A DNA stretch of 64,000 nucleotides from Catajapyx aquilonaris (lineage: Eukaryota): the NCBI GenBank assembly GCA_000934665.2, contig JYFJ02001216.1:1-64000 (forward strand). The letters run 5' to 3'. The notes under the pieces were generated by a model, which worked only from the letters and a program-made list of their open reading frames with translations, did no database searches and had not been told where the DNA came from. Each line of letters begins with the position of its first letter. The stretch's first letter is position 1. Below, piece by piece: positions 3,252 to 28,343 of this stretch. The position numbers were made by a program, and so were the translations under genes.

Positions 3252-4825
3252 ATGCGGTCCTTCGCTGCTCTTCTGTTGGCCTGCGTCGCTGTCGGTATGC
3301 CTTCGTTAATGTTCAAGGACATTGTCACATCTCTTTGTTATCAAAATGACAAGTGCCTTTTTCTTGAAATTACAGCATCCGCGCTTCATGGCTTGGACGA
3401 CTCCTTTCTCCAGGAGCATGGACACATGGTCATCTCCACGCAGGTGACGGAGAAGGACGACAACTTCCAATTCGTTGAACACGCTGGTGAGTTGACCTCC
3501 TAATGCCCTCGTCGACCTTGTCTGAGATCCGACTTTGTCTGATTCAGATCTGGTCAGTACCATCGGATTCTGCGTCCGAAACTTTGAGAAGACAGGCATC
3601 ACCGAGGCTGGAAACTGCATCTCCAACAGCTTCCGGTCCAGGAAGGCCACTCTTCAGCTCCTGAAGACATTCCTCAAGCAGGTGAGACACTGAAGCATTT
3701 GTCTTAATCAGTGGGCTTTTATCGTGTGCGTCGTGATTCCCAGACCGCTCAGAAGGCTAATGGCGACCTGGATGTTGACATTGTCGTCAGTGACGATGGC
3801 AGCATCAAGGTTGGCTCTAATGGACTGACCTGGATTGCCTCTGGAACAGTCACTGTCAACGGGAAAGGTGTGGCCTACAACAGGACCGGACTTCTCAACA
3901 CCTCTGACAAGCGAGTGACTTTCGAGGAAGTGATCCAAATCTTAGGCGTCACCAGTAATGGGGACGACGTCAACGGTGGAGCAGCCATATACCTGGACGT
4001 CGACATCTACACGTTCAAGAAGGAAACATACACTCAGATAGGCACGAAGAGCAGCCTCCACCACGGTGCAGGTGTCTCCATCACTGGCGATGACGGCTCC
4101 GTCACCGAGGCCACCCGCAGTGGTCAGATGACCGTCAACGGCAATACCATCGTTCAGAATGACAACCAGACCGTAATCATCCAGAGCGCTGGGATGGCCG
4201 CCGGTACCGAGATCGGCCACTACCACAAGACCAACTCCGACGGTAGCGAGACCCACGTGTCTGCCTCCATGTCTGATGCCGTCGACACTCGCGGTAGTGT
4301 CGAAATTGACTTCGGTACCGATGAAATCGAGGTCAGCATTGAGTACAGTGCGGCTGATTTGGTAGGTTCATTATTGACAACTTATTTCAGATCGAGGCTG
4401 TCCAGATGATCGGATTCGGCCATCACATCTACGTGGGCAAACCCGCCGTCCGCCAGTACGGTACCGCATCTGTCCGAAAGACAGGCAGCGTATCCGGCGA
4501 CAAGAAGAAATTCACCATCTCGTCTCAGGACACGTTCATGGTGGACGGAGCCGTCTTGGACTACGAGGACAACGCTCTGGGGTCTTTCTTTGGTGAAGGA
4601 GAGGTGGACAACGAGGTCGTCACCGTCGGATCAGACGCATCTGAAGACGTCGTCGGAAACATAAACGGCACAGCCAATTTTGTGGTCACCCCCGTCAAGG
4701 GAGACAAGGTCAAAATCAGCGTCACAAGCAGCATTACCTCTCACGTTAGCGGAACCAACGACGGCAGCGGTAACATCAAGGGACACGCCGACATAGAGGC
4801 AGAGATAAAGGTCCACACCGAATAA
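3252..4825 (+). CDS. Family A gene A2: secreted beta-rich protein, closest paralog of A1, 5 exons
   Basis: Signal peptide MRSFAALLLACVAVA and the same intron positions as A1. ORFs 3711-4409 and 4406-4825 cover exons 4 and 5. Ends GHADIEAEIKVHTE. Confidence 0.88.
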
Positions 4826-5246: not shown

Positions 5247-6853
5247 ATGAAGTTGTTGGCGGCCCTTCTGTTAGCTTGCGTTGCTGTTGGTAGGTGTGCT
5301 CAGTAGTTTCTGTCCATTTTTCGCATAATAATTAAAACCGAATTTCTCTCTGTGCAAAGTGGCAGCTTCTTCTCTGCAGGACCTGGACGACTCATTCCTG
5401 CAGGAACATGGCTCCAGATTTTTGTTAGAAGAAGCAAGTAGCGAAGACGAGGACTTCCAGTATACAGACTATGTCTGTGAGTGACTTCATGATGTGCTTC
5501 ACAAAAGGTCCCAACTAACATGTTCAATTCAACAGTTCTGGTCAGCGTCATGGAATTCTGCACGCGTCACTTGGAACGCGGTGACGCCAATGACGTCCTC
5601 GGATGCATGGGATACAGCCTGAGTGACCGAAAAACCACTCCAACGATGGTGCACAGCCTCATGAAGAAGGTACTGTACACTCTCATGTCATCAGAATCAC
5701 CAATGAGCAGCATCACAGGCCACTGGTGATGGTTAATAATGTTGTACAGTCTCTGAAAGGTGGGAATGACTACTTCATGGAAGTGGACATCACCGACGAT
5801 GCCAGAGTCACTCATGAGGCTGGGAAGGGCCTGAGATGGACCTCCACTGGTACCGTCAACCTCAACGGAACGACAATACCCTACACCAGAAGCGGACTTG
5901 CTGTACTCTCACATCAGAAGGTCACAATCGAGGAGTCGACACAGGTCAGGGAGGAGTTGATTAAGGCGGATGCATACCTGTACATGGATTTCGACATCTA
6001 CCAACTTGATGGTACGCAAATGATGTCCATCACCAACCTGCACCATCGTACAGTCGTCGCCGCCAATGCCAGCGACGGCACCTCTTCTCAAATCAGCAAC
6101 CGTGGTCAGGTCGTGGTCAGGATCATGGGAACAGTCGAGAAGGAATCGGACGGAGACATCAAGATGTACAGCAACTATACTGTCAGCAGTACCGAAATTG
6201 ACCGTGTTCGCACGACCACTTTTGATGATTCAGTGTGGACCCACGTAGACACCAGGTCTGAAGGCCTGGACGGTGACTGGTATGTCAACATCAGCTTCAG
6301 CAGTCCATCCGATGTCAAGGTTAGGCAATTTGATCCGGATCCAAAAGCAGTTGATTCAATCCATTGTTTTTTCCAGATTTCTGGCCATATGACCAATTTC
6401 GGCGGAGCCAGATTTTATTACGAGAATGGCGAGCCGTCGTTACGTCGCGGTGCCAACGGATTGGTAGACAAATCTGTTGTCATTTCTGGCACCAGAGACA
6501 AATTTAGAGTCACCAGTCACCACACAATGACATCGATGGGGTTCTCCGGCGGAACCTTACAGGGCAAGTTACAAGGCGTTCATATGGACTCGACGAACTC
6601 CACCCGATGCGTCGACACACAAATGGACGTCCTAGTTGGATCAGACAAGTCCGTCGACGTCAAGAGCAACACCAAGACCAGCAGGCAGATCACGATAAGT
6701 GACGTCCCTCCTAATGGACACACGGTAAACATCATCATCGACGACGACGTCAGTTCGCACGTCACCGTCAAGGATAACGGCGACAGTACCTTCACCGTGC
6801 ACTGCGACATGTCCGACAAGACGCACGTCCACACTGATGAATCTATGATATAA
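5247..6853 (+). CDS. Family A gene A3: secreted beta-rich protein, 5 exons
   Basis: MKLLAALLLACVAV; LDDSFLQEH; LVSVMEFCTRH..C. The 375-aa ORF 5726-6853 includes a 57-nt in-frame intron at 6320-6376, at the family-conserved position. Confidence 0.85.
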
Positions 6854-10785: not shown

Positions 10786-12835
10786 AATTCAACGACAGAA
10801 AATAAAATCTGCAGTTCATGCTGACAACCAAACCTTTTCATGTCATTTTTAAACGTTTTAAACAGGTCACCAATGTCCAATATAGTTAAAAACAATCATG
10901 AATGCTTTTAATGATGATGGTGTAAGCTTCAGCTCAGAGTAAAAGTCACGATCATTATTGTTAAAAAAAACCAATGCCATAAAGTGTGCACCTACAATAG
11001 CAGAGTAAATAGCAATAGCATTACTCACAGTTAGTACAGAGCTACAGATATATTCATCACGTATGATCGCCTTTTATTAGAAAATGCAATGGAGCAATAA
11101 ATTAATGCAGAATGTGTGTTATAACTTGCAAAATAATCGGTATAGCCGAGAAATTGCGGTATTATTGCCCTACAACTATAGACCTACAGCTTTACCTCTT
11201 TAAACAATGATTAGGCGAAAATATTCCTGTACAAAGTCAATATTTTACTACATGTTCGATAAGCTTGATTACGGTTAGTTCCAGGAGTTGGAAGGACTGG
11301 TGTCAGCACCAGTCAGAAAGAGGCACGAGTCTGTTGACAATGAGTCTTTCTTATCTGTCGCAGAGATACTGGTAGCCTGCGCAAAAAGTACTACAGCTGA
11401 AGATAGCAAACAGTGTTATCCTAATCAAACAATGGGGGCAAAAAACACGCAATTTTTTTTTGAGAATGAGAAGAAAACTTGGCATCGTCGCATCCACTCA
11501 TAGTGCAATGTTATCAAGTGGAGGATTTTAAATCACACACACGCAAAAAATTACGCCACATGATATTACATCACATGGTCAAGTGGGTCTTTCCTATACG
11601 TAATAAAGTTAATGTCGTATAATTGCTCCGATAAATATTTTATATATATTATTTTCCAAGCAAAGCTTGATATACCGTATATTATTATGCTCTAGGTATT
11701 TCCAAGAGACTTGAGGAGCAGATGCAAATATGTAAAATTATGGATAAATGGTTAGTATAATATAATTATATGAATATTCAAGTGTTAATATAATGTTGCT
11801 TACCAAAGTGTTAGCTGTCGGTCCAATTAACCGGGGTGAAAAATCTCGATTAGTTGTAAAATGATATGTTGAGCTAAAGCGGCCATAAATTTCTTACAAA
11901 ATATTATACGTCATTGATAATAATTTTGCTCAGTTCCACATAACCAAATGTCCATCGCGAGGAATGTGTTATGTAACTTTGTGCTGCATTAAAAAGTGAG
12001 AGTAATTATTAAATTTTCACTTCTCCCAACAATGCAATATTTTGTAATTCAAATTACTATTTTTTCATCTCATATGAAACTTTTCAATCCGGGAATTTTT
12101 TCGACATGCAGCCCTTAATAGCTAGGAGATTTATTATAATAATACTGAATATCCTCCCTCACTTTTACATGGAACCTATTAACTGGCAGTTAAGTTTGAC
12201 CACATATTTTACCGAACATTTCTTTTCAAGTCCGCATGGCGGCTGAAATTATTTTTACCTGCACTTGATATCCGCGTCATTTACCTAACCATAGTAAGGT
12301 CAGAGTTCATTGAGCCCTAAATTTGAACACCAACAAACCGGATTCTCCATATCGGCTATAATATTTATTCTCAGTCATATATTATTTGCCTGGGAAAAAC
12401 CTGATTGCAATCAAAGCCTGCACCTGAGTACACATTGCCTCAACTGCAGCAAAAAATTGCATGCTCTGTGTAACACGAGGGGCCTCGAGAGGTCACGTAA
12501 CCATCCCCCTATGAGTGGACACCGATAAAAAAATTTGACAAGTGTCACCATCCACTTGACAGAGAGCGAGATACGCTGGAAGGCAGTCGAAGGACGCTTC
12601 TGAAGTGGTGGTAAAGTCCGCCGGTATCTCACTAGCCCCGATTTATTTCAAGAGTGTTTGCTATTTCACACATCATCATTTCCTCTGATTGCGAGTCATA
12701 CGTTTCGTAATGTACCGGCCAGGACTGGACGATGAGAGAGCAAAAAAAGTGCAGATCTGTAGATAAGAAATGAAATAAAAGTCGGTGCCGTCCGTCAGCA
12801 CTTCGGAGTTTTGATACGTGCCTGATCTCTCCACC

Positions 12836-14456
12836 ATGAAATACTTCGCAGTCCTTCTCCTTGTCGGCCTTGCCGTCGGTACGTCCCCCGTTTAAAAAAA
12901 CAAAAGTCACGACCATGCTCATGTACCTGTTTCTAATTGACCCACAGCCACCCCTGAGGTCACCGATGACTTCCTGAACGAGCATGCCGGCAAGTTCCTG
13001 ACAGTGAAGCGCACCACCTCCGACAAGGATGACGCCTACGTGAACCTCGATGCCGTCGGTACGTCTTCATTGCACGAATTATGGTCAGTACCCGTATAAA
13101 CCCACGTTCTGTTTTTTAATTTCCAGAGCTGGTCCGAAGCCTTGGCTTCTGCTCCCGCAACCACAAGATGATCGGCGTGGACACCATCGGACCATGCCTG
13201 ACCAGCTACTTCAAGCACAGCCAGGCAGCACCCAGGATGATGCAGAGCTTGCTGAAGAAGGTACACGATTTGCACATATTTTTATGAGGATCAGTTGCGC
13301 TGAATCCAATATTGGGGCTATTTCAGCAACTGGGCGCTGGCAAGGATGTCGAAGTCAAGGTTGACATCGTCGATGACGGCAGCGTGACCAAGGACGGACA
13401 GACCATCACCTGGAATGCCAAGGGAACCATCGCCGTGAACGGCAAGTCTTTCCCTTACGACAGGCAGGGACAGGCCCATTTCGGTAAGGGAAGCGTCACC
13501 GCCGTCGAGGATATCACCTCCAAGGGTGACAGCTACTCATACGGAGCCGCCACCAACGTTCATGTAAGTATTCGCCTGGTTTATACTATAGGATGTTAAC
13601 TATGCCGACGACACCTGCAGGTTGACTTCAACGCAGTCAAGGACTCGTCTGGCAACGTGGCCGTCGAGGCCGTCGTCAGCGGCAACAACGAGGGAGGCGT
13701 GAGCATCACGACCTCAGATGGCTCCAACATCCTCGCCGAGCATCTTGGACAGCTGACCATCCACGCTCACGCTGGAGCAGCCAAGAAGGACAACGTCGTC
13801 TACGTCGTCACCGAGGCCGCCGTGTCCTCCACCAACGGAGACGCCGTCCACACCAAGAAGTCCGATGGAACCATCACCCACGTCCACTCTTCCTCTTCCG
13901 GGGGACTCGATGTCATTGAGGGCGTCAACATCACTCTGGCCAACCCCGTCGATGTAAGTCCTGTCAATGACGATAACTGGCTGGTATGTAATTGTTGTGT
14001 GATTATTTAAAGGTGTCTGCTGCTGCCTTGTTCGCTGGCCGTAGTGCCCACATCGCCGACAAGCCCGACTTCCGCTCTGCCACCGAGGGTGGTGCCAGGT
14101 CCACCGCCAAGATCACCCCAGCAGGAGCTGGCAAGATCTCCATCGCCGGTCACGATGAGGTTGGCACCAAGACTGAGGTCAGCGACTACCAGGACAACGT
14201 GCTCGCCACCATCGAAGCCGGAGCCGAGAGCGACAACACCTTCAACATCGCCGTCGACCTGAACGCCAAGACCCTGAACGTGGAGAGCAGCAGCAAGTTC
14301 GACGGCAAGGTCGTGGTCACCCCAGCCTCCGGATCCGCCGTCACCGTCACCGACGAGGGCACCCTCACCGGAAGCCTCTCCGCCAAGCTCGACAGCGCCA
14401 CCTCCGGAAGCGGACACGCCGAGCAGCACCTCGACGTCACTGTCCACACTGCCTAA
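12836..14456 (+). CDS. Family A gene A6, 433 aa, 6 exons
   Basis: Exons 12836-12878, 12948-13058, 13127-13260, 13327-13563, 13621-13953, 14013-14456 (1302 nt). The first three exon lengths (43/111/134) equal those of A1. CCACCATG start and strong C-ending codon bias. Confidence 0.9.
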
Positions 14457-14870
14457 ACATAGGACTTTCAAGAACCAGCACGGTGTGATAACAGCCAACA
14501 TCCTGTCCATCAAAGCTCTCACAATTACAATGATGCAATAATAAAAATCAGACACAAGCTTTACGAATAATTATCTCTTGTCGCATTTTCAACAATCCTT
14601 TCCTCGCTCTCCAAGCAGCGCAATAATTCCGATTCTGACGTCAAGCAATGGTCGCCACAAATATTGAGAAATAAATAAGGGGACTTGACACAAAAGTGAT
14701 TGTGGAAAAAAACTCAACATTCAGCCTCGTTTCATTAATATACAATATATTGTAATTGATCGAAGAATATGCCATTTCATACGTCACGAATACAGCCTAC
14801 GACACGTTCATTGCCTCAAAAGCTGCCTGCCACATCTACAGTTAGAATTAAAATCGCATAAAAAATTAAC

Positions 14871-15450
14871 TGTAGACCTTCCTCTGGCCTGAACATCACA
14901 CTGTACTTCGATTTTGTGGAGGACGGCACCATATGATGCGAAGGACAAGACTGGATCTTCGATAGGAATGCTTCGTACGCCGGAGAAATATTATTATGTA
15001 ACGTGCTGAAACACCCTTCCAAATGTCATCGGAGGCAACCTTCGAATCCCTCGCACCGATGTCCGTTATTCCTCCAAGGGGTCAGCCAGGTCATCAGCCA
15101 GCCTGACCCTTGCCCACGGAAAGATGTCCGTCGCAGGTCACAACGAGCTGGAAATGAAGACTGACCTGAGAGATTACCAGGACACCTTGCTGCTCGTCAC
15201 AGTGACTAAAGCCGAGTCTGACAACCAAGTTTGCTTGACCGTCAAGGGTGATGCCCATAAGTCCGCTGACCTGGAGGTCAAGGTCAACTTCAGCGGAAAG
15301 ACTGCGGCCATCCCAGAGAACGGATCTGGAACAGTCACCGTCGCCAATAAGGGCACCTTCACAGGCACAGTCACGGCCAAAGACAACGGGGACAACACAG
15401 CCCAAGGTCACACCGAACAATACCTCAAAGTCAACATACAGCAATACTAA
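14871..15450 (+). pseudogene. Family A pseudogene A7 (truncated duplicate of A9)
   Basis: Matches 27025-28113 but lacks exons 1-3. It has TGA at 14934-14936 (AGA in A9), a ~490-nt deletion in exon 4 and smaller deletions. Confidence 0.9.
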
Positions 15451-15523
15451 AGTACAATTTTGAGCAATAAAATGTGACATACAGCAATTGAATATTGCGC
15501 ACTAATTTATCTAAACAGCGCAT

Positions 15524-15728
15524 TCCAATCCGCAGTTTTTCGCGCTAACCTGATTATTTTTAATCAGTTACTTTGTAGATAAAAATTAGCAACTTATGTT
15601 AGAAAGTTACACATAACTGATCGTCAACTTTCATCGTCATCATTACGATGTTTCTGGACTATTTGACACATAATTGTGTTCCTATTTAAGCAACAGATTA
15701 CACGTGTAAATAGGACTGGGCGGTTGGC
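15524..15728. mobile_element. Small insertion, possibly an old MITE, absent from the paralogous A9 3' flank
   Basis: The A9 flank reads acagcgcat-cactttg uninterrupted. Here ~205 nt lie between imperfect 8-bp repeats CAGCGCAT and TAGCGTAT, with weak inverted ends. Confidence 0.4.
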
Positions 15729-16777
15729 TAGCGTATCACTTTGAATTTTCATCCTGGAATACACGCAACCCACAAGCACAAGCCCATACAGTAAGTCCCC
15801 CTCAAAAACGCACTCGTAAAAAACGCGCCAAGTCTTCCGCCGAAAAAACCTGTGAGATAATGTCTGGGAGCCAAGCCTTGTCCACTCCGCCGTACAAAGT
15901 CGTGAGATCGTGGTGGACGCCAAGCCTTTCTTCGAGGCTATAAGCTAAGCGAGATGACTTGGCCGGACTTGGTTCACGGGCACGAGGAACAATATACGCG
16001 TTCAGTTCGCTCGGCCAATATAATAGGGGAAGGAGCGCGTTGAGGGCAGCTAATGCAGGTGACCCTATGTTCCGACTAGCGTGGAATGCTGACCACGACA
16101 GCCAGTTCATACAAGGTTCAGTGGTTGCCAACCTTTTCGTCATGGAGCCCCCCCTTTTCGTTTTCGCCAAACACTCCCCCCCCCTCCCCCCCCCCGGTCC
16201 CAATAAATTTCAGCAAGAGTTTCTTGAAATATGTTTTCATAGCCGAGGAATGAGAACTTGTCGAAAAATGGGAAAAGGGGGTTCAAGGTCACACAAGTTT
16301 AGGTGAATGTAGCTGACAAAGTATAGTGGAATCCCCTTCATATTTCCAGCAGCGCCAAGCGGAAATGTGACATTATGTTACTTATTTCTCATGGCCTCAA
16401 GCCATCATCCCACCACAACGTGTATTAATATTATTACCCAACCCAATGCAGATAACGTAAATATAACATTGCCAACGTGTTCAACGACCCCGAAAACGTA
16501 CGAATACACAGTTCATGTGTACACCAGAGAGCCCACAAATACAGAACAATTCAAACATTATTCACATTCTTGTTCTTGATAATAATATTAAAGCAACTTA
16601 AAGATGATTACCACAGAGATAATCATTCGCTTTTAATTAACATACGCCGCACACCCTTATCTATACAAACTGGTTTTATCCGCACTGTCTTCACTAAATT
16701 ACAGGGTGCACAATTCAATGTATTGCAAGGTGATAAATCATAAATGTAACAGGATGAGTTGATATTGGACTGATTAG

Positions 16778-18820
16778 CTAAAACACAGGCCAACACTGGC
16801 TCAACACACCTGATGTCAAGAGTTCGGCAAAGAAACCCACGAGACTCATGCCCCAAGAAAAAACAAAGAGGAAATAGAGAGCACCGCTCAGCTGACTAAA
16901 GTTGAGGGCCATCGACCTTAGGTACAATAGGTCCTTCTTTCGAGCATCTCTTATTCCCATGGTCAGGCAGGCATACTCGAAGGCTCTCCGGAACTTCTCG
17001 TGTACACCGGACTCTCTGACGTACTTGAGCATCCGGCTCATGATCGGGAATATCAGGCTGTGCTTCTCGGTCAGGATAGAACCGGTCACAATTACGTCTC
17101 TTTCCTGTGCAAATTTTGTGGGCAGATTACCCGCCTTGTCCGCAAACTGATAACAACCGGCCACCAGGATGTCGTAAGTGACAATGCAGCAGTGGTCGGA
17201 GTTGATGGCCTCGAGAACACACATGTTGAGGTCCACATGATCCGTCATTTCCCTGGCAGCAGATGCGAAGTACTCCAGTCCCAGGAGAGCACTGTGGGCG
17301 TAAGGTTTGAAGAATCCTATCGTCCCCCAACTCCACCTGGGCCAATCCTGGTGCTCCCTGTATGTCTCCGGGAGTTCCTCCATCAAGGGAGAGGTCAGGA
17401 AGCCGAAGTAGAGGGCCTCGTACCCACAGATGATGACCAGGGATAAGGCCCACCAGAAGGAGATGAATATTCGGGGTAGTTGGGTGGAGGGGACCAGGTT
17501 CGGGTTCTCTTCGATCAGGGTGGAGGAGAGGTACCTCAGGGAGTACAGGAGGAGGCGGGGGAAGGACCAGGGGCGGCCAGGGAAGGGGGGGAGGGGACTC
17601 CACTTCAAGAGGAGGGCGAGGACTGCGCTGCCTAAGACTACGGAGACCATCACCATCGCCCACATGTCCGGAGTGTACGGTCGGAGCATCGCGTTCCAGG
17701 TGTAGCTCACTCGAGGGGCCCTGGTTACGAACGTGATGGTGGCAAACGCATGGGGAAAACTAATGTCGACCACCAGGGACATGCGATCTTTATTCAATGT
17801 TATTCCGAACACTGCTTTTCTTCGGAGGATGACTCCTGTTGCTCCGGTGTAGTTTCCGTCTGGCAGAGGAACATCCGGTATCACCCCGTCTTCCCCCTCG
17901 GGGGATTCCAAGACCCAGTCGTAATTCATGGCCTGGCTGATGGGCAGGAGGTCCATCATCTCTGGGAACATGGGCAAGTTGTTTTCAAAGAAATACTGAA
18001 GCTCGTTTTTGCTCAGGTCCAACAAGAATGATCCGTTGAGAAATCGGTTGTGCAGATTCCGGGAATAGTCCGGGAAGATATCCAGTCCGGACGGAGTCAC
18101 TTGTCCTCTTCCGGGGTCGAACCATCCCCTCGTGACCACCCCGGGATGACCCCCCTTGCAAAAGTGGCAGTTGGAGAGCAGCCCGACCATCCCTGGATGA
18201 CCTCCCTGGACCCCAGAGGAGGTGTCCACCCCCGCCAGGAAGAGGAACCTCTCCGTGACCCCGTGCAGCATGACCTCCTCCAGCCCCCTCCCTCCCCCCT
18301 CGCTGACCCACACAACGAACTTGTCCCTTCCCGTCTGGATGGAGACCAGTCTGGCCACCTGCTCCACCAGTGACCTCGGGTCATGGTGGTGGTCGGATGA
18401 TGATGGTGACCCGAAGAGCAAGAGCAGGTACACCGCGCACTTGTGCTCCACCGCACCAGGTCTGTGCAACCAAGAGAACCAGTACTCGAACTGACCTGAG
18501 TTGACCTGGTGTGACCCCCTCTTCTGCCGGGTCACGGTGGTGGTGGTGACGGGCAGCACTGGGGTCACCCCCACCCGGTGTATCCTCCTGATGAACCCGG
18601 ATAGTTCAGGCCCGTTGAACCTTCTTCCTTGGTCCGTGGCAGGCACCAAAAGGCAAGAAGGGTACATCCGGCTGACCAAATGGACAAACTCAGTCACTCG
18701 AAACAACTCACTGTCCTCTGGTGATCTAAGGTCAAGGGTGACCTTCCCCTCTCCACCCTTCCCCACTACCAGCGCCCACAAGACGAGCAGCATGAGGACT
18801 GGCAACGAATATGACTCCAT
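16778..18820 (-). CDS. Divergent ionotropic receptor (IR, variant iGluR chemoreceptor), 680 aa, intronless
   Basis: Signal peptide; S1 region GNYTGATGVILRRKAVFGI...VDISFPH...TFVTRAP; pre-M1/M1 LRPYTPDMW; RIFISFWW...GYEALYFGFLT (equivalent of SYTANLAAFLT); S2 ...ESGV; last TM LNFSQLSGALYFL...FFAEL. Confidence 0.9.
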   Translation of the reverse strand: MESYSLPVLMLLVLWALVVGKGGEGKVTLDLRSPEDSELFRVTEFVHLVSRMYPSCLLVPATDQGRRFNGPELSGFIRRIHRVGVTPVLPVTTTTVTRQKRGSHQVNSGQFEYWFSWLHRPGAVEHKCAVYLLLLFGSPSSSDHHHDPRSLVEQVARLVSIQTGRDKFVVWVSEGGGRGLEEVMLHGVTERFLFLAGVDTSSGVQGGHPGMVGLLSNCHFCKGGHPGVVTRGWFDPGRGQVTPSGLDIFPDYSRNLHNRFLNGSFLLDLSKNELQYFFENNLPMFPEMMDLLPISQAMNYDWVLESPEGEDGVIPDVPLPDGNYTGATGVILRRKAVFGITLNKDRMSLVVDISFPHAFATITFVTRAPRVSYTWNAMLRPYTPDMWAMVMVSVVLGSAVLALLLKWSPLPPFPGRPWSFPRLLLYSLRYLSSTLIEENPNLVPSTQLPRIFISFWWALSLVIICGYEALYFGFLTSPLMEELPETYREHQDWPRWSWGTIGFFKPYAHSALLGLEYFASAAREMTDHVDLNMCVLEAINSDHCCIVTYDILVAGCYQFADKAGNLPTKFAQERDVIVTGSILTEKHSLIFPIMSRMLKYVRESGVHEKFRRAFEYACLTMGIRDARKKDLLYLRSMALNFSQLSGALYFLFVFSWGMSLVGFFAELLTSGVLSQCWPVF

Positions 18821-19243
18821 CGTGACTAGTCCTCGCCGGGTCTTATAGTAGCCTTTTTATGCCCTTCGCCGAATAAAATCTGGCCGTCAATTTTGCCCTT
18901 CCAATGCCATAACTTGCGTCCATTTTAAGCCCACGGTTGGAATGAAACATTTTCTGGAACCATAAAAATTGCTCCCTCAATCTGGCAAGTATCTTACCAA
19001 GTGACCTAATTGCTAATCGCCAACTTTTGTCGTTGCAATAGTAGCAAATTACACCTTAGGCCCCACCAGCTACTAGCGTCACTCTCTTGTCGGCACATGT
19101 ATGTCAAATGTCACTAATAATGACATTAAATGATGCCTTTTGATCTCATTTTGGGCATTATTGCTGCTGCTCTTCAAGCAATTCAGAGCGATTTGGTTGT
19201 TGTTGCCACATAGAATGTCAGCAAGCTACCATTAAGTTATGTA

Positions 19244-22357: not shown

Positions 22358-22845
22358 CAAATCCTATATTGTTATAGCCAGGAAAATAGCCTTGTTTGGG
22401 CGTTTATGAACCGGAGACAGTTTGTCCAAAATTCATGATTTTTTTAAAAAATGGGGTCCGTCCCGCTGTAAGACCAGACCAGGCCATGTAAATCTCAGAC
22501 CTCCAGCCTTACTGACCCAGTCCCGAGTTACAAGGGGCTCGTGTGTAGAGTAACGAGGGGGTTAGTGTAAAGGAAGGGGCAGTGCGGGTGGGTGGGAGGA
22601 GACTTGGTAGTGGTAAAGTCCGCCGGTATCTCACCAGCCCCGATTTATTTCAAGAGTGTTTGCTATTTCACACATCATCATTTCCTCTGATTGCGAGTCA
22701 CACGGTTCGTAATGTACCCGCCAGGACTGGAACGATGAGAGAGCAATAAAAAAGTGCAGATCTGTAGACAAGAAATGAAATAAAAGTCGGTGCCGTCCGT
22801 CAGCACTTCGGAGTTTTGATACGTGCCTGATCTGTCCACGTAACC

Positions 22846-24482
22846 ATGAAATACTTCGCAGTCCTTCTCCTTGTCGGCCTTGCCGTCGGTACGTCCCCCG
22901 TTAACAAAACAAAAGTCACGACCATGCTCATGTACCTGTTTCTAATTGACCCACAGCCACCACTGAGGTCACCGATGACTTCCTGAACGAGCATGCCGGC
23001 AAGTTCCTGACAGTGAAGCGAACCACCTCCGACAAGGATGACGCCTACGTGAACCTCGATGCCGTCGGTACGCCTTTATTGCACGAATTATGGTCAGTAC
23101 CCGTATAAACCCACGTTCTGCTTTTAAATTTCCAGAGCTGGTCCGAAGCCTTGGCTTCTGCTCCCGCAACCACAAGATGGTCGGCTTGGACACCATCGGA
23201 CCATGCCTGACCAGCTACTTCAAGCACAGCCAGGCAGCACCCAGGATGATGCAGAGCTTGCTGAAGAAGGTACACGATTTGCACATATTTTTATGAGGAT
23301 CAGTTGCGCTGAATCCAATATTGGGGCTATTTCAGCAACTTGGCGTTGGAAAGGATGTCGAAGTCAAGGTTGACATCGTCGATGACAGCAGCGTGACCAG
23401 GGACGGACAGACCATCAGCTGGAATGCCAGGGGAACCATCGTCGTGAACGGCCAGACTGTCCCTTACCACAGGACGGGACAGGTTCATTTCGGTAAGGGA
23501 AGCGTCACCGCCATCGAGGATATCTCCTCCAAAGGTGGCAACTACCAGTTCTCAGCCGCCGCCAACGTTCATGTAAGTATTCGCCTGGATTATACTATAG
23601 GATGTTAACTATGCCGACGACACCTGCAGGTTGACTTCAACGCAGTCAAGGACCAGTCTGGCAACGAGACCGTCGAGGTCGTCGTCAGCGGCAACAACGA
23701 GGCTGGCTTGAGCATCACGACCTCAGACGGCTCCAACTTCCTCGCCGAGTATCTTGGACAGCTGACCATACACGCTCACTCTGGAGCCGCCGAGAAGGAC
23801 TACGTCGTCTCCGTCGCAACCGAGGCCGCCGTGTCCTCCGCCAACGGATACTCAGTCCACACCAAGAAGTCCGATGGAACCATCACCCACGTCCACTCTT
23901 CCTCTTCCGCGGGACTCGATGTCATTGAGCACGTCAGCGTCACTCAGTCCAACCGGTATAACCCCGTCGTCTATGTAAGTCCTGTCAATGACGTTAACTG
24001 GCTGGTATGTACGATAATTGTTGTGTGATTATTTAAAGGTGGAAGCTGGTGCCTCGTTCGCTGGCCGTGGTGCCCACATCTCCGACAAGCCCGACTACCG
24101 CTCCGCCACCCAGGGTGGTGCCACGTCCAGCGTCAAGATCACCCCAGCAACAGTTTGCAAGTACTCCATCGCCGGTCACGATACGGTTGGCAGCAGGACT
24201 GTGCTTAGCGACTACCAGGACAACGTGCTCGCCACCGTCAACGCCGGAGTCGCTAGCGACGACACCTTCAACATCGCCGTCGACCTGAAAGCCAAGACCC
24301 TGAACGTGGAGAGCAGCAGCAAGTTCGACGGCGCGGTCGGGGTCACCCCAGCCTCCGGATCCGCCGTCAACGTCAACTACGATGGCACCCTCACCGGAAG
24401 CCTCTCCGTCAAGCTCGACAGCGCCACCTCCGGAAGCGGACACGCCGAGCAGCACCTTGACGTCACTCTCCACACTGCCTAA
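22846..24482 (+). CDS. Family A gene A8 (recent duplicate of A6), 6 exons
   Basis: Signal peptide MKYFAVLLLVGLAVA and intron positions identical to A6. All exons are open; ends GHAEQHLDVTLHTA. Confidence 0.9.
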
Positions 24483-24629
24483 ACATAGGACTTTACACGA
24501 ACCAGCACGGTGTGATAACAGCCAACATCCTGTCCATCAAAGCTCTCACAATTACAATGATGCAATAATAAAAATCAGACACAAGCTTTACGAATAACCA
24601 CTTTTTGTCGCATTTTCAACAATCCTCTC

Positions 24630-24634
<5 letters not shown>

Positions 24635-24671
<37 letters not shown>

Positions 24672-24695
24672 NCACACACACACACACACACACAC
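24635..24695. repeat. Compound microsatellite (CT)n-N-(CA)n
   Basis: Seen directly; ambiguous base at 24672. Confidence 0.95.
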
Positions 24696-25376
24696 TCCAA
24701 GAAGAGTAATAATACCGACAACGTGATATTGACGTCAAACAATATATTGTCGCAACCAATATTGAGAAAATAATGAGGGTACTTGACACAAAAATTATTG
24801 TCGGAAAAAACTCAATATTCAGCCTCGTTTCATTAATATACAATATATTGGAATTGATCGAAGAATATGCCATTTCATACGTCACGAATACAGCTTACGA
24901 CACGTTCATTGCCTCAAAAGATGCCTGCCCCATCTACAGTTAGAATTAAAATCGCATAAAAATGAACTGGACAATGTAGCTTACGTGTTAGGATATTTTG
25001 TACCTTGTAGATGTGAAGCGAAAGATAACAAATGGCGCTTCCATACATAAAGGTGTCTATTCTTGTTTGTACATAATCTACCACCCATTCCAAAGGAACA
25101 AGTTTGTAGATACCACGATATTTCCCTCGTCCCTATCACACTTCGCAGTAAACATAATAGAAAAAAATCCTCTCACGCACTTTCCAGATACATAAGCACT
25201 GTTTCAAGCTAAGGCATAGATTTCGTCAACAATGCTATCCATTCTCTCCATTCTTCCATGTCAACAAATGGGGCCTAATATCACTGGGCCAGATACTTCT
25301 GTTGGACGCGCATTGTCTCGTACTGCTTGTATAAATAAGTGGCCTGTCCGTCTCGACAACAGCAAATTGCTCCAGC

Positions 25377-25931
25377 ATGAGCTCCAGACTGTTTCTGATG
25401 GCCTCCATCACCTTGGCTGTGATGACCACTCCTGCACTCTCACACACAAAGTCTTCCGAGCCACTCGCCAGGCTCAGCAAGTGCTATGGCCGCATGGCCA
25501 ACGCAGTGGAGATCAGCCTCAAGGAGAATAAGCCAGGGATCCTCTGCTGGTCAGTATAAAATGTACAACATAACAATAATATACAAGTGTAAATAATGCT
25601 ACCTATCCAGGCAGTTGACTCTTATCGATATTTATTATTGCTAAACAATTATTGCATTTTCATGGGCAGTGCTGTTAAACCGTTCATAAAATGCGTGGGG
25701 AGGATTGGAGGAATAGGAGCAAGAGACGGAGCTTCTGCACACAGATACTACGACCGCCTATTGGTAAGTCTCACTGGCATCAGCTGCTGCATATTAATTA
25801 TTTTTTCTGAATAGATGATTGTCATTGTGACCAATTCAAAATATGCTTTTTGCCTATATTTTCAGGGTGCTTGCTACATTCTTATGTGGTACATGCCAAT
25901 ACCTTGCCTCCTCCCAGAGGAAACATCGTGA
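25377..25931 (+). CDS. Family B gene B1: small secreted Cys-bonded helical protein, 3 exons
   Basis: TATAAATA at 25330; exons 25377-25549, 25670-25763, 25866-25931. Protein MSSRLFLMASITLAVMTTPALS...KCY..ILCC|AVKPFIKC..AHRYYDRLL|GACY..PC..*. Confidence 0.85.
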
Positions 25932-26571
25932 CGTTTTAAATAAAATAATTGTACATTATACGTACTCAACTTCGTTTGTTATTGCATTAGTATAATGCAA
26001 CGGACACCTAAGAAGGGATACACATTGCACCATGCAGTAATATACTGCATGCAAAGTGTCAATGTTTCAAGTTTGACAATGGTTTAGGCCCACGGGGGGG
26101 TTGCACAGCCCCAATTAATCTTCAATAATTACACACAATTGCTTATGTGAAATTAAATGTGACGCACCTGAGGAGTAAAATTATTCACATGTTTTCAGAA
26201 GGAAAATCACACGGTTCAAGTGATAGCATATTGAAGTTCATGTATGTTTTATTATTAAGTGTTTCTTTCAGAGTGTGCCAACAATGCTTTCTCATAAAAT
26301 TAATTAGTCAGAATGAGCGATTTCATTCAGCTTTTCAGTTGCATTACAATGCAGAAATTTTAAATCATTGCCATTATTTTAATGCCAATAAATGATTCCC
26401 CCCTTTTTTGGCTGATACTGTGCTGTAAGGGTGTATTTCACAATCTGACAAACACTGTCACTACCCTATGATAACGTAATATTATTGATAAGACAAGGTG
26501 CGAAATGGAGTGATCCGTCAGCCACTTATTGGTTTGCTTGACATGTGCGTCGATTCTATCGAGCCGCAACA

Positions 26572-28113
26572 ATGGAGTTATTGCTAGTCCTTCTCTTCGT
26601 GGCCCTTGCTGCTGGTATGCTAGTAATTTTCTTCTGGTTAGCAATGTTACCAAGTCCCTTTTAATCCTCAGCTTCACCGATTCAGTCCGTCATAAACGAT
26701 GACATATTGAACGAGCATGCACACAACTTCATGTCCGTCAGACGCACCGTCATCGACAAGAACGACGCCTTCGACAATCTCGACGCCCTCGGTATGTCTC
26801 GCAAATTACGTTTGCAACAAACTCACTGTAAATGGTTGCAGAGCTGGTTCGCAGCTTGGCGTTTTGCTCGCGAAATGGCGTCGAGAGAGTCGGTCCTTGC
26901 ATGGCTGTCAACTTTCGCGAAGGCAAGGCTGCACCCAGGATGATGAACCGCTTCGTTCAGAAGGTGGCCATACCACAATTATTATGCAATCTTCATACAC
27001 TAATTTATTAAAGCATGCAATTATTGTAGACCTTGAATAGCTCTGGCCTGAACATCACACTGTACTTCGATTTTGTGGAGGACGGCACCATAAGATGCGA
27101 AGGACAAGACTACACCTGGATCTTCGATGGGAATGCTTCGTACGCCGGAACCTCCCTTCCATACCAACGAAAAGGTAGCTTTCACGGGGTCTCAGGAAGC
27201 TGGACATTTTCTGAAGGAATCACATCCTCCGGTGACCACTACCAGGCCGACATGTCTTATTCGGTGCACGTGGATTTGGGACTGCCAAAGGACAATAACC
27301 CTGTTCATGGAGATGTAATAATATCGGTGAGCCTGTACGGCAGGTTGACATTCCAGTCAGATGACGGATCCATCACAGACTCTGAACGCATCGGTCAGGG
27401 CACGGCATACCTCAAGATTAAGAGCATTCAGACGGGCAGCCTGGTCACCTTCACCGTTCCAACCACGGCGTCGTCCACCGTCGAGGACGTCGTCACCATC
27501 CAATCTGCAGACGGATCAATCATCAGGACATTTGGAGACTCCACGACCTACGGAGGTGACATCCTGGAAGTGCTTAACGTCACTCTCACCCATGACGGAC
27601 TCGTACATGTACGACACAAATGTACTCACTTTCCCGGAGCAATTATGTAACGTGCTGTAATTCCAGGTGTCATCGGAGGCAACCTTCGAATCCCTCGCAG
27701 CCCACATGGCCGACCAGCCCGATGTCCGTTATTCCTCCAAGGGGTCAGCCAGGTCTGCAGCCAGCCTGACTCTTGCCCCCGGAAAGATGTCCGTCGCAGG
27801 TCACAACGAGCTGGAAATGAAGACTGACCTGAGTGATTACCAGGACACCTTGCTGCTCGTCACAGTGACTAAAGCCGAGTCTGACAACCAAGTTTGCTTG
27901 ACCGTCGAGGGTGATGCCGATAAGTCCGCTGACCTGGAGGTCAAGGTCAACTTCAGCGGAAAGACTGTGGCCATCCCGGAGAACGGATCTGGAACAGTCA
28001 CCGTCGCCAATAACGGCACCTTCACAGGCACAGTCACGGCCAAAGACAACGGTGACAACACAGCCCAAGGACACACTGAACAACACCTCAAAGTCAACAT
28101 ACAGCAATACTAA
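26572..28113 (+). CDS. Family A gene A9, 5 exons
   Basis: MELLLVLLFVALAA; NDDILNEH; ELVRSLAFCSRN..C; TW/YQRKG; SDYQD; ends GHTEQHLKVNIQQY, followed by AATAAA. Confidence 0.87.
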
Positions 28114-28343
28114 AGCGGTGCAATTTTGAGCAATAAAATGTGACATACAGCAATTGAATATTGCGCACTAATTTATCTAAACAGCGCATCACTTTGTATT
28201 ATTTTTCATCCTGGAATATACGCAACCCACAAGCCCATACAGTAAGTCATGTATTTTCAAGGTGATATTGGACACGTATAAATGAAGATAAGAATGAAGA
28301 TAAAAGTTTGTCGGATGATCCATTTTGATTAATTCACTCAGCC

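Follow-up and report, generated by a model that had tools for sequence, protein, structure and literature searches.

Two tandem copies of a gene for a predicted secreted protein, termed A6 and A8, lie on the plus strand of a 64,000-nt stretch of DNA from Catajapyx aquilonaris (contig JYFJ02001216.1, positions 1 to 64,000; hereafter the window), and the exons of this pair that encode a predicted beta domain have diverged much faster than the introns between them. Exons 4-6 differ at 104 of 1014 positions, compared with 2/182 in introns 3-5 (Fisher p = 3.6e-6), 7/318 in all five introns (p = 6e-7) and 20/692 in all non-coding DNA within the gene (p = 2e-9). Mature-region exons thus outpace introns and untranslated regions (UTRs) between these paralogs. 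The explanation that we favor, with somewhat better than even confidence, is that the gene was recently duplicated in tandem and that the beta domain of A8 then came under positive selection.

The models of both genes were built from GT..AG borders and the open frame. The frames of A6 and A8 are intact and every splice border is GT..AG. The two genes belong to a family of ten loci, found with tblastn on one strand between 1.6 and 30 kb of the window, in which A8 is the one close copy of A6 (12605-14599 against 22607-24626, 92.4% by blastn) and the other loci are 45% or less identical in protein. The homology between A6 and A8 begins abruptly at 12605 (blastn); the 45 nt upstream are unrelated, with 23 mismatches in 52. 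The interval 13327-14456 comprises exons 4-6 of A6 including introns 4 and 5 on the plus strand. The features of the two genes are as follows, X5 being a sequencing run described below.

12836-12878, 12948-13058, 13127-13260, 13327-13563, 13621-13953 and 14013-14456, plus strand: the six exons of the A6 gene, 433 aa
22846-24482, plus strand: the A8 gene, 437 aa, with six exons at 22846-22888, 22957-23067, 23136-23269, 23336-23572, 23630-23974 and 24039-24482
12605-12835, plus strand: A6 5' flank with promoter and 5' UTR; the counterpart in A8 is 22607-22845
12836-13326, plus strand: A6 exons 1-3 and introns 1-3, with signal peptide, N-terminal helical domain and two Cys
13327-13563, plus strand: A6 exon 4, 79 codons, in which the beta domain begins; the A8 counterpart is 23336-23572
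13564-13620, plus strand: A6 intron 4, 57 nt, GT..AG, skipped exactly in an X5 contig
13621-13953, plus strand: A6 exon 5, 111 codons
13954-14012, plus strand: A6 intron 5, 59 nt; loose ends of X5 at 13955 and 14013 link exon 5 to exon 6
14013-14456, plus strand: A6 exon 6, 147 codons plus stop
14457-14570, plus strand: A6 3' UTR; AATAAA lies at 14540-14545, 25 nt ahead of the poly(A) site, which follows 14570

The divergence between A6 and A8 was counted region by region, with the following results (mismatches per aligned position).

5' flank: 7/231, and 3 indels
Exon 1: 0/43
Intron 1: 1/68
Exon 2: 2/111
Intron 2: 4/68
Exon 3: 2/134
Intron 3: 0/66
Exon 4: 28/237; 20/79 aa
Intron 4: 1/57
Exon 5: 32/333; 24/111 aa; A8 has 12 additional nt (4 codons) near the 3' end of the exon
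Intron 5: 1/59, and a 5-nt indel
Exon 6: 44/444; 33/147 aa
3' flank: 6/143

The transcribed 3' UTR to the poly(A) site shows 1 mismatch and 1 single-base indel in ~114 nt. Exons 1-3 together differ at 4/288 nt, with 0.0136 replacement substitutions per site (dN) and 0.015 silent substitutions per site (dS), and introns 1-3 differ at 5/202. An earlier reading of the DNA from its letters alone (the sequence-only reading) had described introns 3 and 4, the promoter and the 3' UTR as almost identical, which the counts bear out, and its figure of 20 of 79 replaced residues in exon 4 was reproduced exactly, as was the description of exons 5-6 as heavily replaced with a short insertion, four residues being inserted in A8. 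The low divergence that it reported for exons 1-3 holds as well; its count of about two residues was inaccurate, the actual number being 3/96.

Both copies are represented in sequencing runs. The run X5 contains spliced, polyadenylated contigs in which introns 2, 3 and 4 of A6 are skipped exactly and a poly(A) run follows 14570, with a depth over A6 of thousands to hundreds of thousands. By its behavior X5 is RNA-like, and the A6 mRNA is genuine, spliced and highly abundant; this conservative copy ranks among the most abundant transcripts of that one sample. At the listed A8-variant places X5 holds no alternative letter, a result uninformative on the expression of A8 since contigs drop rare variants. 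Two runs with other organism labels, X6 and X7, each contain one A6-identical piece of 245-267 nt at depth 2-3 (14015-14259 and 14287-14553); these pieces are probably carry-over of the abundant transcript and not orthologues, and were not used as such. In the DNA run X1, exons 4, 5 and 6 are each present in two contigs, one equal to A6 and the other with 22-30 differences. A single A8-type contig of X1 covers exon 5, intron 5 and exon 6. The results indicate that the pattern is not an assembly chimera. It is very improbable that two alleles, or a collapsed and re-expanded repeat, were placed in tandem by the assembly. The version-specific contigs of X1 (depth 21-35 each) have about half the depth of the shared parts, which are merged into one contig of depth 51, as alleles would also give, and X1 is possibly the sample behind the assembly of the window and hence not independent support. 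However, the DNA upstream of A6 is unrelated to that upstream of A8, with the two junctions recovered in X1 (loose end at 12608), the downstream neighbors are unlike (a deleted fragment, A7, and a complete gene, A9), and ~8 kb that includes an open reading frame (ORF) of another kind separates the copies with no gap between them, the only two N of the window being single bases at 24672 and 41691.

The segmental duplication that produced the pair is larger than the gene. Positions 12605-15797 match 22607-28248 in pieces, with A6 and A7 on one side equivalent to A8 and A9 on the other. The A6 side is without ~2 kb and ~0.5 kb, and A7 is thereby reduced to an exon-6 remnant; a further gap of ~19 nt distinguishes A7 from A9 in addition to the larger deletions. 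Two features of the duplicated segment outside the A6 transcript were compared between the sides.

14571-14738, plus strand: diverged non-coding patch behind the poly(A) site, 27/169 (~16%) mismatches and several indels; the A8 side is 24632-24800
15055-15450, plus strand: A7, of which only exon 6 remains; co-duplicated with exon 6 of A9 (27718-28113), it served as internal control

Exon 6 of A7 and A9 differs at 14/395 nt, with proportions of silent (pS) and replacement (pN) differences of 0.064 and 0.030 by the Nei-Gojobori method (NG) and a pN/pS of 0.47. The remaining co-duplicated pieces differ at 4/76, 3/46, 3/114 and 11/193 positions, for a total of 35/824 (4.2%) in co-duplicated DNA outside the gene. 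This value is not significantly different from that of non-coding DNA within the gene (20/692, 2.9%; p = 0.17), and the two were pooled as neutral yardstick (55/1516, 3.6%). These values put neutral divergence in the duplicated segment at about 3-6%, and by this low figure the A6/A8 pair is young. The patch behind the poly(A) site, for which no better match was found anywhere else in the window, is assumed to reflect local change associated with indels and a microsatellite, the A8 side containing a (CT)n(CA)n microsatellite at ~24632-24695. The high identity of A6 and A8 was also observed to stop within 1-2 bases of the transcript end.

The excess in exons 4-6 is one of replacements. By NG, the A6/A8 comparison yielded 16 silent differences in 247 silent sites (pS 0.065) and 89 replacement differences in 764 replacement sites, corresponding to a dS of 0.068 and a dN of 0.127. 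The exon pS equals the 0.064 of the control pair A7/A9, and among the 260 codons with unchanged amino acid 8/192 silent sites differ (4.2%, compared with the yardstick of 3.6%, p = 0.68). Silent divergence is therefore ordinary and calls for neither conversion nor a donor; the outlier is dN, at about three to four times the neutral yardstick. The replacement proportion of 89/764 is significantly above the 20/692 of non-coding DNA within the gene (p = 6e-11) and above the pooled yardstick of 55/1516 (p = 9e-13), with the single non-coding patch (27/169) as exception. The differences at codon positions 1, 2 and 3 number 44, 44 and 21 (chi-square p = 0.008). Within exon 6, where the control is available, A6/A8 differ at 44/444 positions and A7/A9 at 14/395 (p = 3e-4), with ratios of replacement to silent differences of 40:4 and 9:6 (p = 0.012). 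In the older pair A1/A2, dS is 0.50-0.74 and dN 0.21, for a dN/dS ratio (omega) of 0.28-0.42, and the introns have diverged more than the exons; the replacement to silent ratio of 89:16 in A6/A8 compares with 140:94 in A1/A2 (p = 3e-6). The replacement rate of A6/A8 is far above both the family norm set by A1/A2 and A7/A9 and each available neutral yardstick. Constraint on the introns was rejected as an explanation, the introns of A1/A2 being more diverged than the exons.

Whether omega itself exceeds 1 depends on the model of codon frequencies. Pairwise maximum likelihood (ML) codon models were run in an implementation of our own on a gene with strong bias for C-ending codons (60% C at third positions). 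The estimates for exons 4-6 were as follows.

Nei-Gojobori: omega 1.87, Fisher p = 0.022
ML with equal codon frequencies: omega 2.13, likelihood-ratio test p = 0.0046
MG94-F3x4: omega 1.57, p = 0.10
GY94 with F3x4 or F61: omega 1.04-1.05, dS 0.11, not significant

Exon 6 alone gave an omega of 3.5 (NG), 2.95 (MG94-F3x4, p = 0.036) or 1.8 (GY94-F3x4, not significant). The claim of positive selection made in the sequence-only reading is thus upheld with regard to the excess of replacements over neutral divergence, while an omega above 1 in the classical sense hinges on the model, with a range of 1.04-2.13. That reading had also held that an omega at or below 1 together with raised exon dS would speak for conversion of the introns or for a donor. 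The exon value (0.065 by NG, 0.11 with F3x4) is above the 0.022 of the introns, yet equals the 0.064 of the control; an omega down at about 1 with raised dS was obtained solely with the model that treats codon bias as mutational, and the external yardsticks point the opposite way.

In order to polarize the replacements (P0001, the sole database homologue, a 443-aa protein encoded on a 1435-nt JGI contig, served as outgroup), the 80 sites at which A6 and A8 differ were compared with the outgroup residue. P0001 is identical to A6 at 224/432 residues and to A8 at 196/433. Its residue is that of A6 at 37 of the 80 sites, that of A8 at 9 and neither of the two at 34, and a relative-rate test of the 37 A8-derived against the 9 A6-derived sites gave p = 4e-5. 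Among nine family members, the majority residue is that of A6 at 49 sites and that of A8 at 16, with 13 ties. The results indicate that A8 is the fast, derived copy, that about four fifths of the polarized replacements fall on its branch and that A6 has departed little from the family consensus. Over the aligned beta domain A8 has six fewer acidic residues, five more Tyr and one more Cys than A6, and the isoelectric point rises from 4.99 to 5.33. Conservative exchanges are commoner among the single-base replacements than chance would give (mean BLOSUM62 score +0.19 compared with -0.45 expected, p = 0.001), which shows that a structural filter, and hence selection, still acts on the protein.

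The accelerated exons correspond to one predicted structural domain. P0001 was modeled with AlphaFold2 using an alignment of exon translations from the window (25 rows). The model has a mean predicted local distance difference test score (pLDDT) of 75.7; residues 1-91 score below 50 and contain predicted helices, and residues 117-442, which correspond to exons 4-6, are predicted to form 16 long antiparallel strands with a pLDDT of ~90. The model agrees with the beta region named in the sequence-only reading, and according to it the acceleration stops at the domain border, with the change confined to a single domain. The further proposal that this region contacts a varying target did not find support. 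When residues were mapped by strand parity and hydropathy, differences were found at 31/135 positions of the more hydrophobic face, 34/135 of the more polar face and 10/59 in loops; both faces and the loops are replaced alike, and the changes are conservative.

On the explanation that we favor, a recent tandem segmental duplication produced A6 with A7 and A8 with A9, after which exons 4-6 gained replacements at three to four times the neutral rate, about four fifths of them in A8. Positive directional selection would have re-tuned the beta domain of the new copy with the fold kept, a neofunctionalization, and the introns, UTRs and exons 1-3 would merely reflect the young age of the pair. We infer a functional A8, and selection, not mutation, as the force behind the excess.

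Several results weigh against this explanation. The intact frame of A8 is weak evidence of function, the probability of an open frame after 104 random substitutions being 0.074. The GY94 models with F3x4 or F61, which absorb the bias for C-ending codons, leave omega at 1.04-1.05 with a dS of 0.11 and no significance, the MG94 test against an omega of 1 gives p = 0.10, and by NG the silent divergence of the exons (16/247) exceeds the divergence of the introns (7/318, p = 0.017). The replacements are near-uniform, with no hot spots and with longest identical runs that are not significant, unlike the patchy pattern of a selected binding surface. The neutral yardstick is not uniform, the patch at 14571-14738 being as diverged as the exons (27/169). 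Third-position changes are more frequent in replaced than in unchanged codons (12/77 and 8/260, p = 2e-4; 7 of the 12 would be silent by themselves), and adjacent-base differences are in modest excess (17 compared with 10.6 expected, p = 0.027). This clustering within codons and at adjacent bases points to multi-nucleotide mutation, a known inflater of signals of the dN/dS type. The 89 differing codons include 18 with two or three changes; the other 71 carry a single change, and these by themselves give a dN far above the neutral yardstick. The comparison also has a base of two sequences, A6 and A8.

The alternatives differ in what they make of the introns and of the silent sites. In one, which we regard as unlikely, the duplication is older, with a divergence of ~10% or more as seen in exons 4-6, and repeated conversion has homogenized the promoter, exons 1-3, the introns and the 3' UTR while selection kept exons 4-6 apart. 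Conversion does appear to be active in the cluster: A1 and A2, 77% identical overall, share a ~190-nt stretch (~1470-1660 and ~3390-3580) with ~2 mismatches, from exon 2 through intron 2 into the first part of exon 3, which looks like a classical gene-conversion tract. The 5' block of A6/A8 at 12605-13326, with 16 differences in 721 positions, could likewise be a single tract, the raised exon dS (0.11 by GY94-F3x4, well above the introns, or 16/247 against 7/318 by NG) would fit an older split, and the patch at 14570-14738 is 16% diverged as if spared homogenization, which is the best argument for conversion. The islands of identity, however, fit introns 4 and 5, with the nearest exonic differences at 13552/13645 and 13951/14016, so that conversion would require ~60-nt tracts whose ends fall on all four junctions. 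Contiguous identity that crosses exon borders is seen only in the 5' block, exonic differences come within 2-24 nt of these junctions, just 50/840 exonic 58-nt windows have 1 difference or fewer, and a search for long identity tracts inside the A6/A8 exons found none that were significant. The co-duplicated DNA, which includes the dead A7 and has diverged by 4.2% (35/824), would need converting too, across large deletions. A neutral divergence of 10-12% would predict more silent change than the 8/192 seen in unchanged codons (p = 0.002 to 0.0001), synonymous sites in the family moving freely as seen in the dS of 0.5-0.74 between A1 and A2, and even under conversion omega would remain about 1-2, far over the family norm. 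The donation of patches of A8 exons 4-6 by a distant third paralog with non-homologous introns, in tracts ending at exon borders, is improbable. The cluster offers ten family loci, all on one strand inside 30 kb, A8-derived residues at columns 171-173 and 178 (KSF..Q to QTV..T) recur in A10, A1 and A2, and the clustering of differences within codons is such as short templated tracts can give. On the other side, 0/104 variant alleles of either copy lie under an exact match of at least 14 nt elsewhere in the window, with A8 no better than A6, the other loci of the window are at the low protein identity given above, and no paralog prefers A8 (the best being A10 at 15 to 15 and A3 at 11 to 9). X1 shows only two versions per exon at 80% likeness or more and, at each of the 40 listed variant places, exactly one contig with the other letter, which argues against a close third copy. 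A donor under purifying selection would moreover import many silent differences; 89 replacement and 16 silent differences are seen, with an exon pS equal to that of the control pair.

Non-adaptive change confined to A8 was weighed in two forms. One form, in which A8 is under relaxed constraint or in early decay and mutation has risen in exons only, for example by clustered multi-nucleotide events, is doubtful, a little more so than conversion. The uniform spread over strands, faces and loops is consistent with it, as are the excess of tandem and within-codon double changes, the weakly informative frame of A8 (p = 0.074), the omega of ~1 under GY94-F3x4 and the alteration in A8 of positions conserved in the family, such as columns 290 (D to Y) and 392 (G to C). 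Relaxation alone cannot raise dN above the neutral level: with a neutral divergence of 0.065-0.11 over both branches, A8 free and A6 at an omega of 0.3, the expected dN is 0.04-0.07, compared with the observed 0.12-0.13. Nor is any mutational process known that spares introns of 57-59 nt between exons, the spectrum of changes is flat with no dominant class and a CpG observed/expected ratio of 0.98, and the filtering of replacements toward conservative ones (p = 0.001) shows selection still acting. The other form, in which an exon-limited mutational or templated process rewrites the coding segments of one young copy and the pattern does not arise from surface selection, we judge slightly less probable even than donation; it fits because the spread is almost uniform and breaks off sharply, a few bases at most from five exon-intron junctions, and because silent changes ride in replaced codons and tandem changes are in excess. 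Two specific mutators were tried and rejected, CpG or methylation-driven mutation of exons on the basis of the CpG ratio of 0.98 and of 42 transitions to 62 transversions, and adenine-specific mutagenesis of the kind called DGR-like on the basis of the flat spectrum. Positive selection on the A8 beta domain after a recent duplication remains the explanation that we prefer.

Searches for relatives indicate a restricted family. None of exons 4, 5 and 6 had a Pfam match above cut-off, the only hit being DUF6798 (E = 0.017, 15.3 bits compared with a cut-off of 26.9), and phmmer of P0001 against the PDB gave 0 matches at E up to 1. An exhaustive phmmer search of 1.84 billion representatives with exon 6 returned only P0001 (E = 1.5e-27) and a weak partial match, P0002, and protein homologue searches with exon 6 at longer lengths and with P0001 returned only P0001, the protein cluster of which has 1 member and no name. 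The ESM Atlas search gave no usable match, and scans of metagenomes with P0001 and with A6 exon 5 gave pattern matches and no relative. Foldseek produced no convincing fold match (TM 0.32 or lower). VIA-align retrieved large bacterial outer-membrane barrels, for example MtrB (6r2q_B; Z = 17.3, root mean square deviation 4.6 A over 308 residues, 6% identity). Filing the protein under any of these folds was rejected, the VIA-align matches being generic large beta-barrels; sequence identity is 4-7%. Outer-membrane barrels such as MtrB and the single-layer sheet of OspA appear to share with the predicted domain a large antiparallel beta architecture, and differ from the protein described here in that it is eukaryotic, has a signal peptide and contains few aromatic residues; in terms of the model the likeness is one of architecture only, with homology not implied. 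A6 and A8 are accordingly described, from the model, as members of a lineage-restricted family of predicted secreted proteins built of a signal peptide, a short helical N-terminus and a ~330-residue, 16-strand beta domain. It is conceivable, though improbable, that the family represents a secreted, monomeric, beta-barrel-like animal protein with 16 strands, an architecture otherwise found in bacterial or organellar membranes. As a guess, the product may be a soluble carrier or binding protein of haemolymph or of a secretion; A6 would be its conserved, abundant version and A8 a re-tuned version. Since the A6 copy is conservative and abundant and the family is lineage-restricted, its function is probably important and lineage-specific.

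Other features of the window were noted. In A3 (5627-6853) a single open frame of 408 codons corresponds to part of exon 3 through exon 6, the introns that A6 has there seemingly having been lost. Between A7 and A8 lies an intronless iGluR-like ORF of 692 codons on the minus strand (16781-18856), with a weak match to Lig_chan PF00060 (E = 2.3e-5, 24.7 bits, under the cut-off of 30.8) and no relatives in the protein collection searched. The right half of the window (30000-64000) is richer in AT, with a GC content of 0.37-0.44, and none of the 25 ORFs of at least 100 codons tested there had a Pfam family. In all, Pfam searches of 29 ORFs of the window besides those named above found 0 families.

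Introns more alike than the adjoining exons of tandem paralogs are known from the primate red and green opsin genes and from HLA/MHC class I, in which the introns are homogenized by conversion and selection keeps the exon differences. The A6/A8 pair is like these systems in that pattern and in the conversion apparently active in its cluster (A1/A2). It is unlike them in that co-duplicated DNA and silent sites in unchanged codons have diverged as little as the introns, and in that its stretches of identity, at only 57-59 nt, match the introns. Multi-nucleotide mutations are reportedly a source of false signals of positive selection, a point attributed to Venkat, Hahn and Thornton (2018), and the 18/89 codons with more than one change, the silent riders in replaced codons and the 17 adjacent differences where 10.6 are expected resemble such signals. 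The resemblance is limited by the modest size of the excess and by the 71/89 single-change codons, which suffice for a dN far above the yardstick.

The closest likeness is to the duplicated genes of snake venoms, described for phospholipase A2 (PLA2) isozymes and three-finger toxins as undergoing accelerated evolution (PMC2474615, PMC2711939, PMC6062510). The venom families share with A6/A8 a tandem, secreted multigene organization in which the signal-peptide exon, introns and UTRs are near-identical and the mature exons evolve faster, replacements outnumber silent changes and the fold is kept. A6 and A8 differ in that the host is arthropod-like and the changing part is a 337-residue beta domain and not a small disulfide-rich toxin; there is also no segment switch (ASSET), the single substitutions being evenly spread, and the acceleration is mostly in one copy. 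Accelerated evolution of venom PLA2 is said to have been described originally by Nakashima, Ogawa and Ohno. The pair provides a clean and very young instance of one-sided divergence after duplication, with its controls (introns, dead A7, A1/A2) in the same 64 kb, and illustrates that in a codon-biased gene the verdict of pairwise dN/dS can hinge on the codon-frequency model, where external yardsticks help. A6/A8 is not a new kind of system; it fits the known, venom-type pattern of accelerated evolution, here in an unannotated family of arthropod type.

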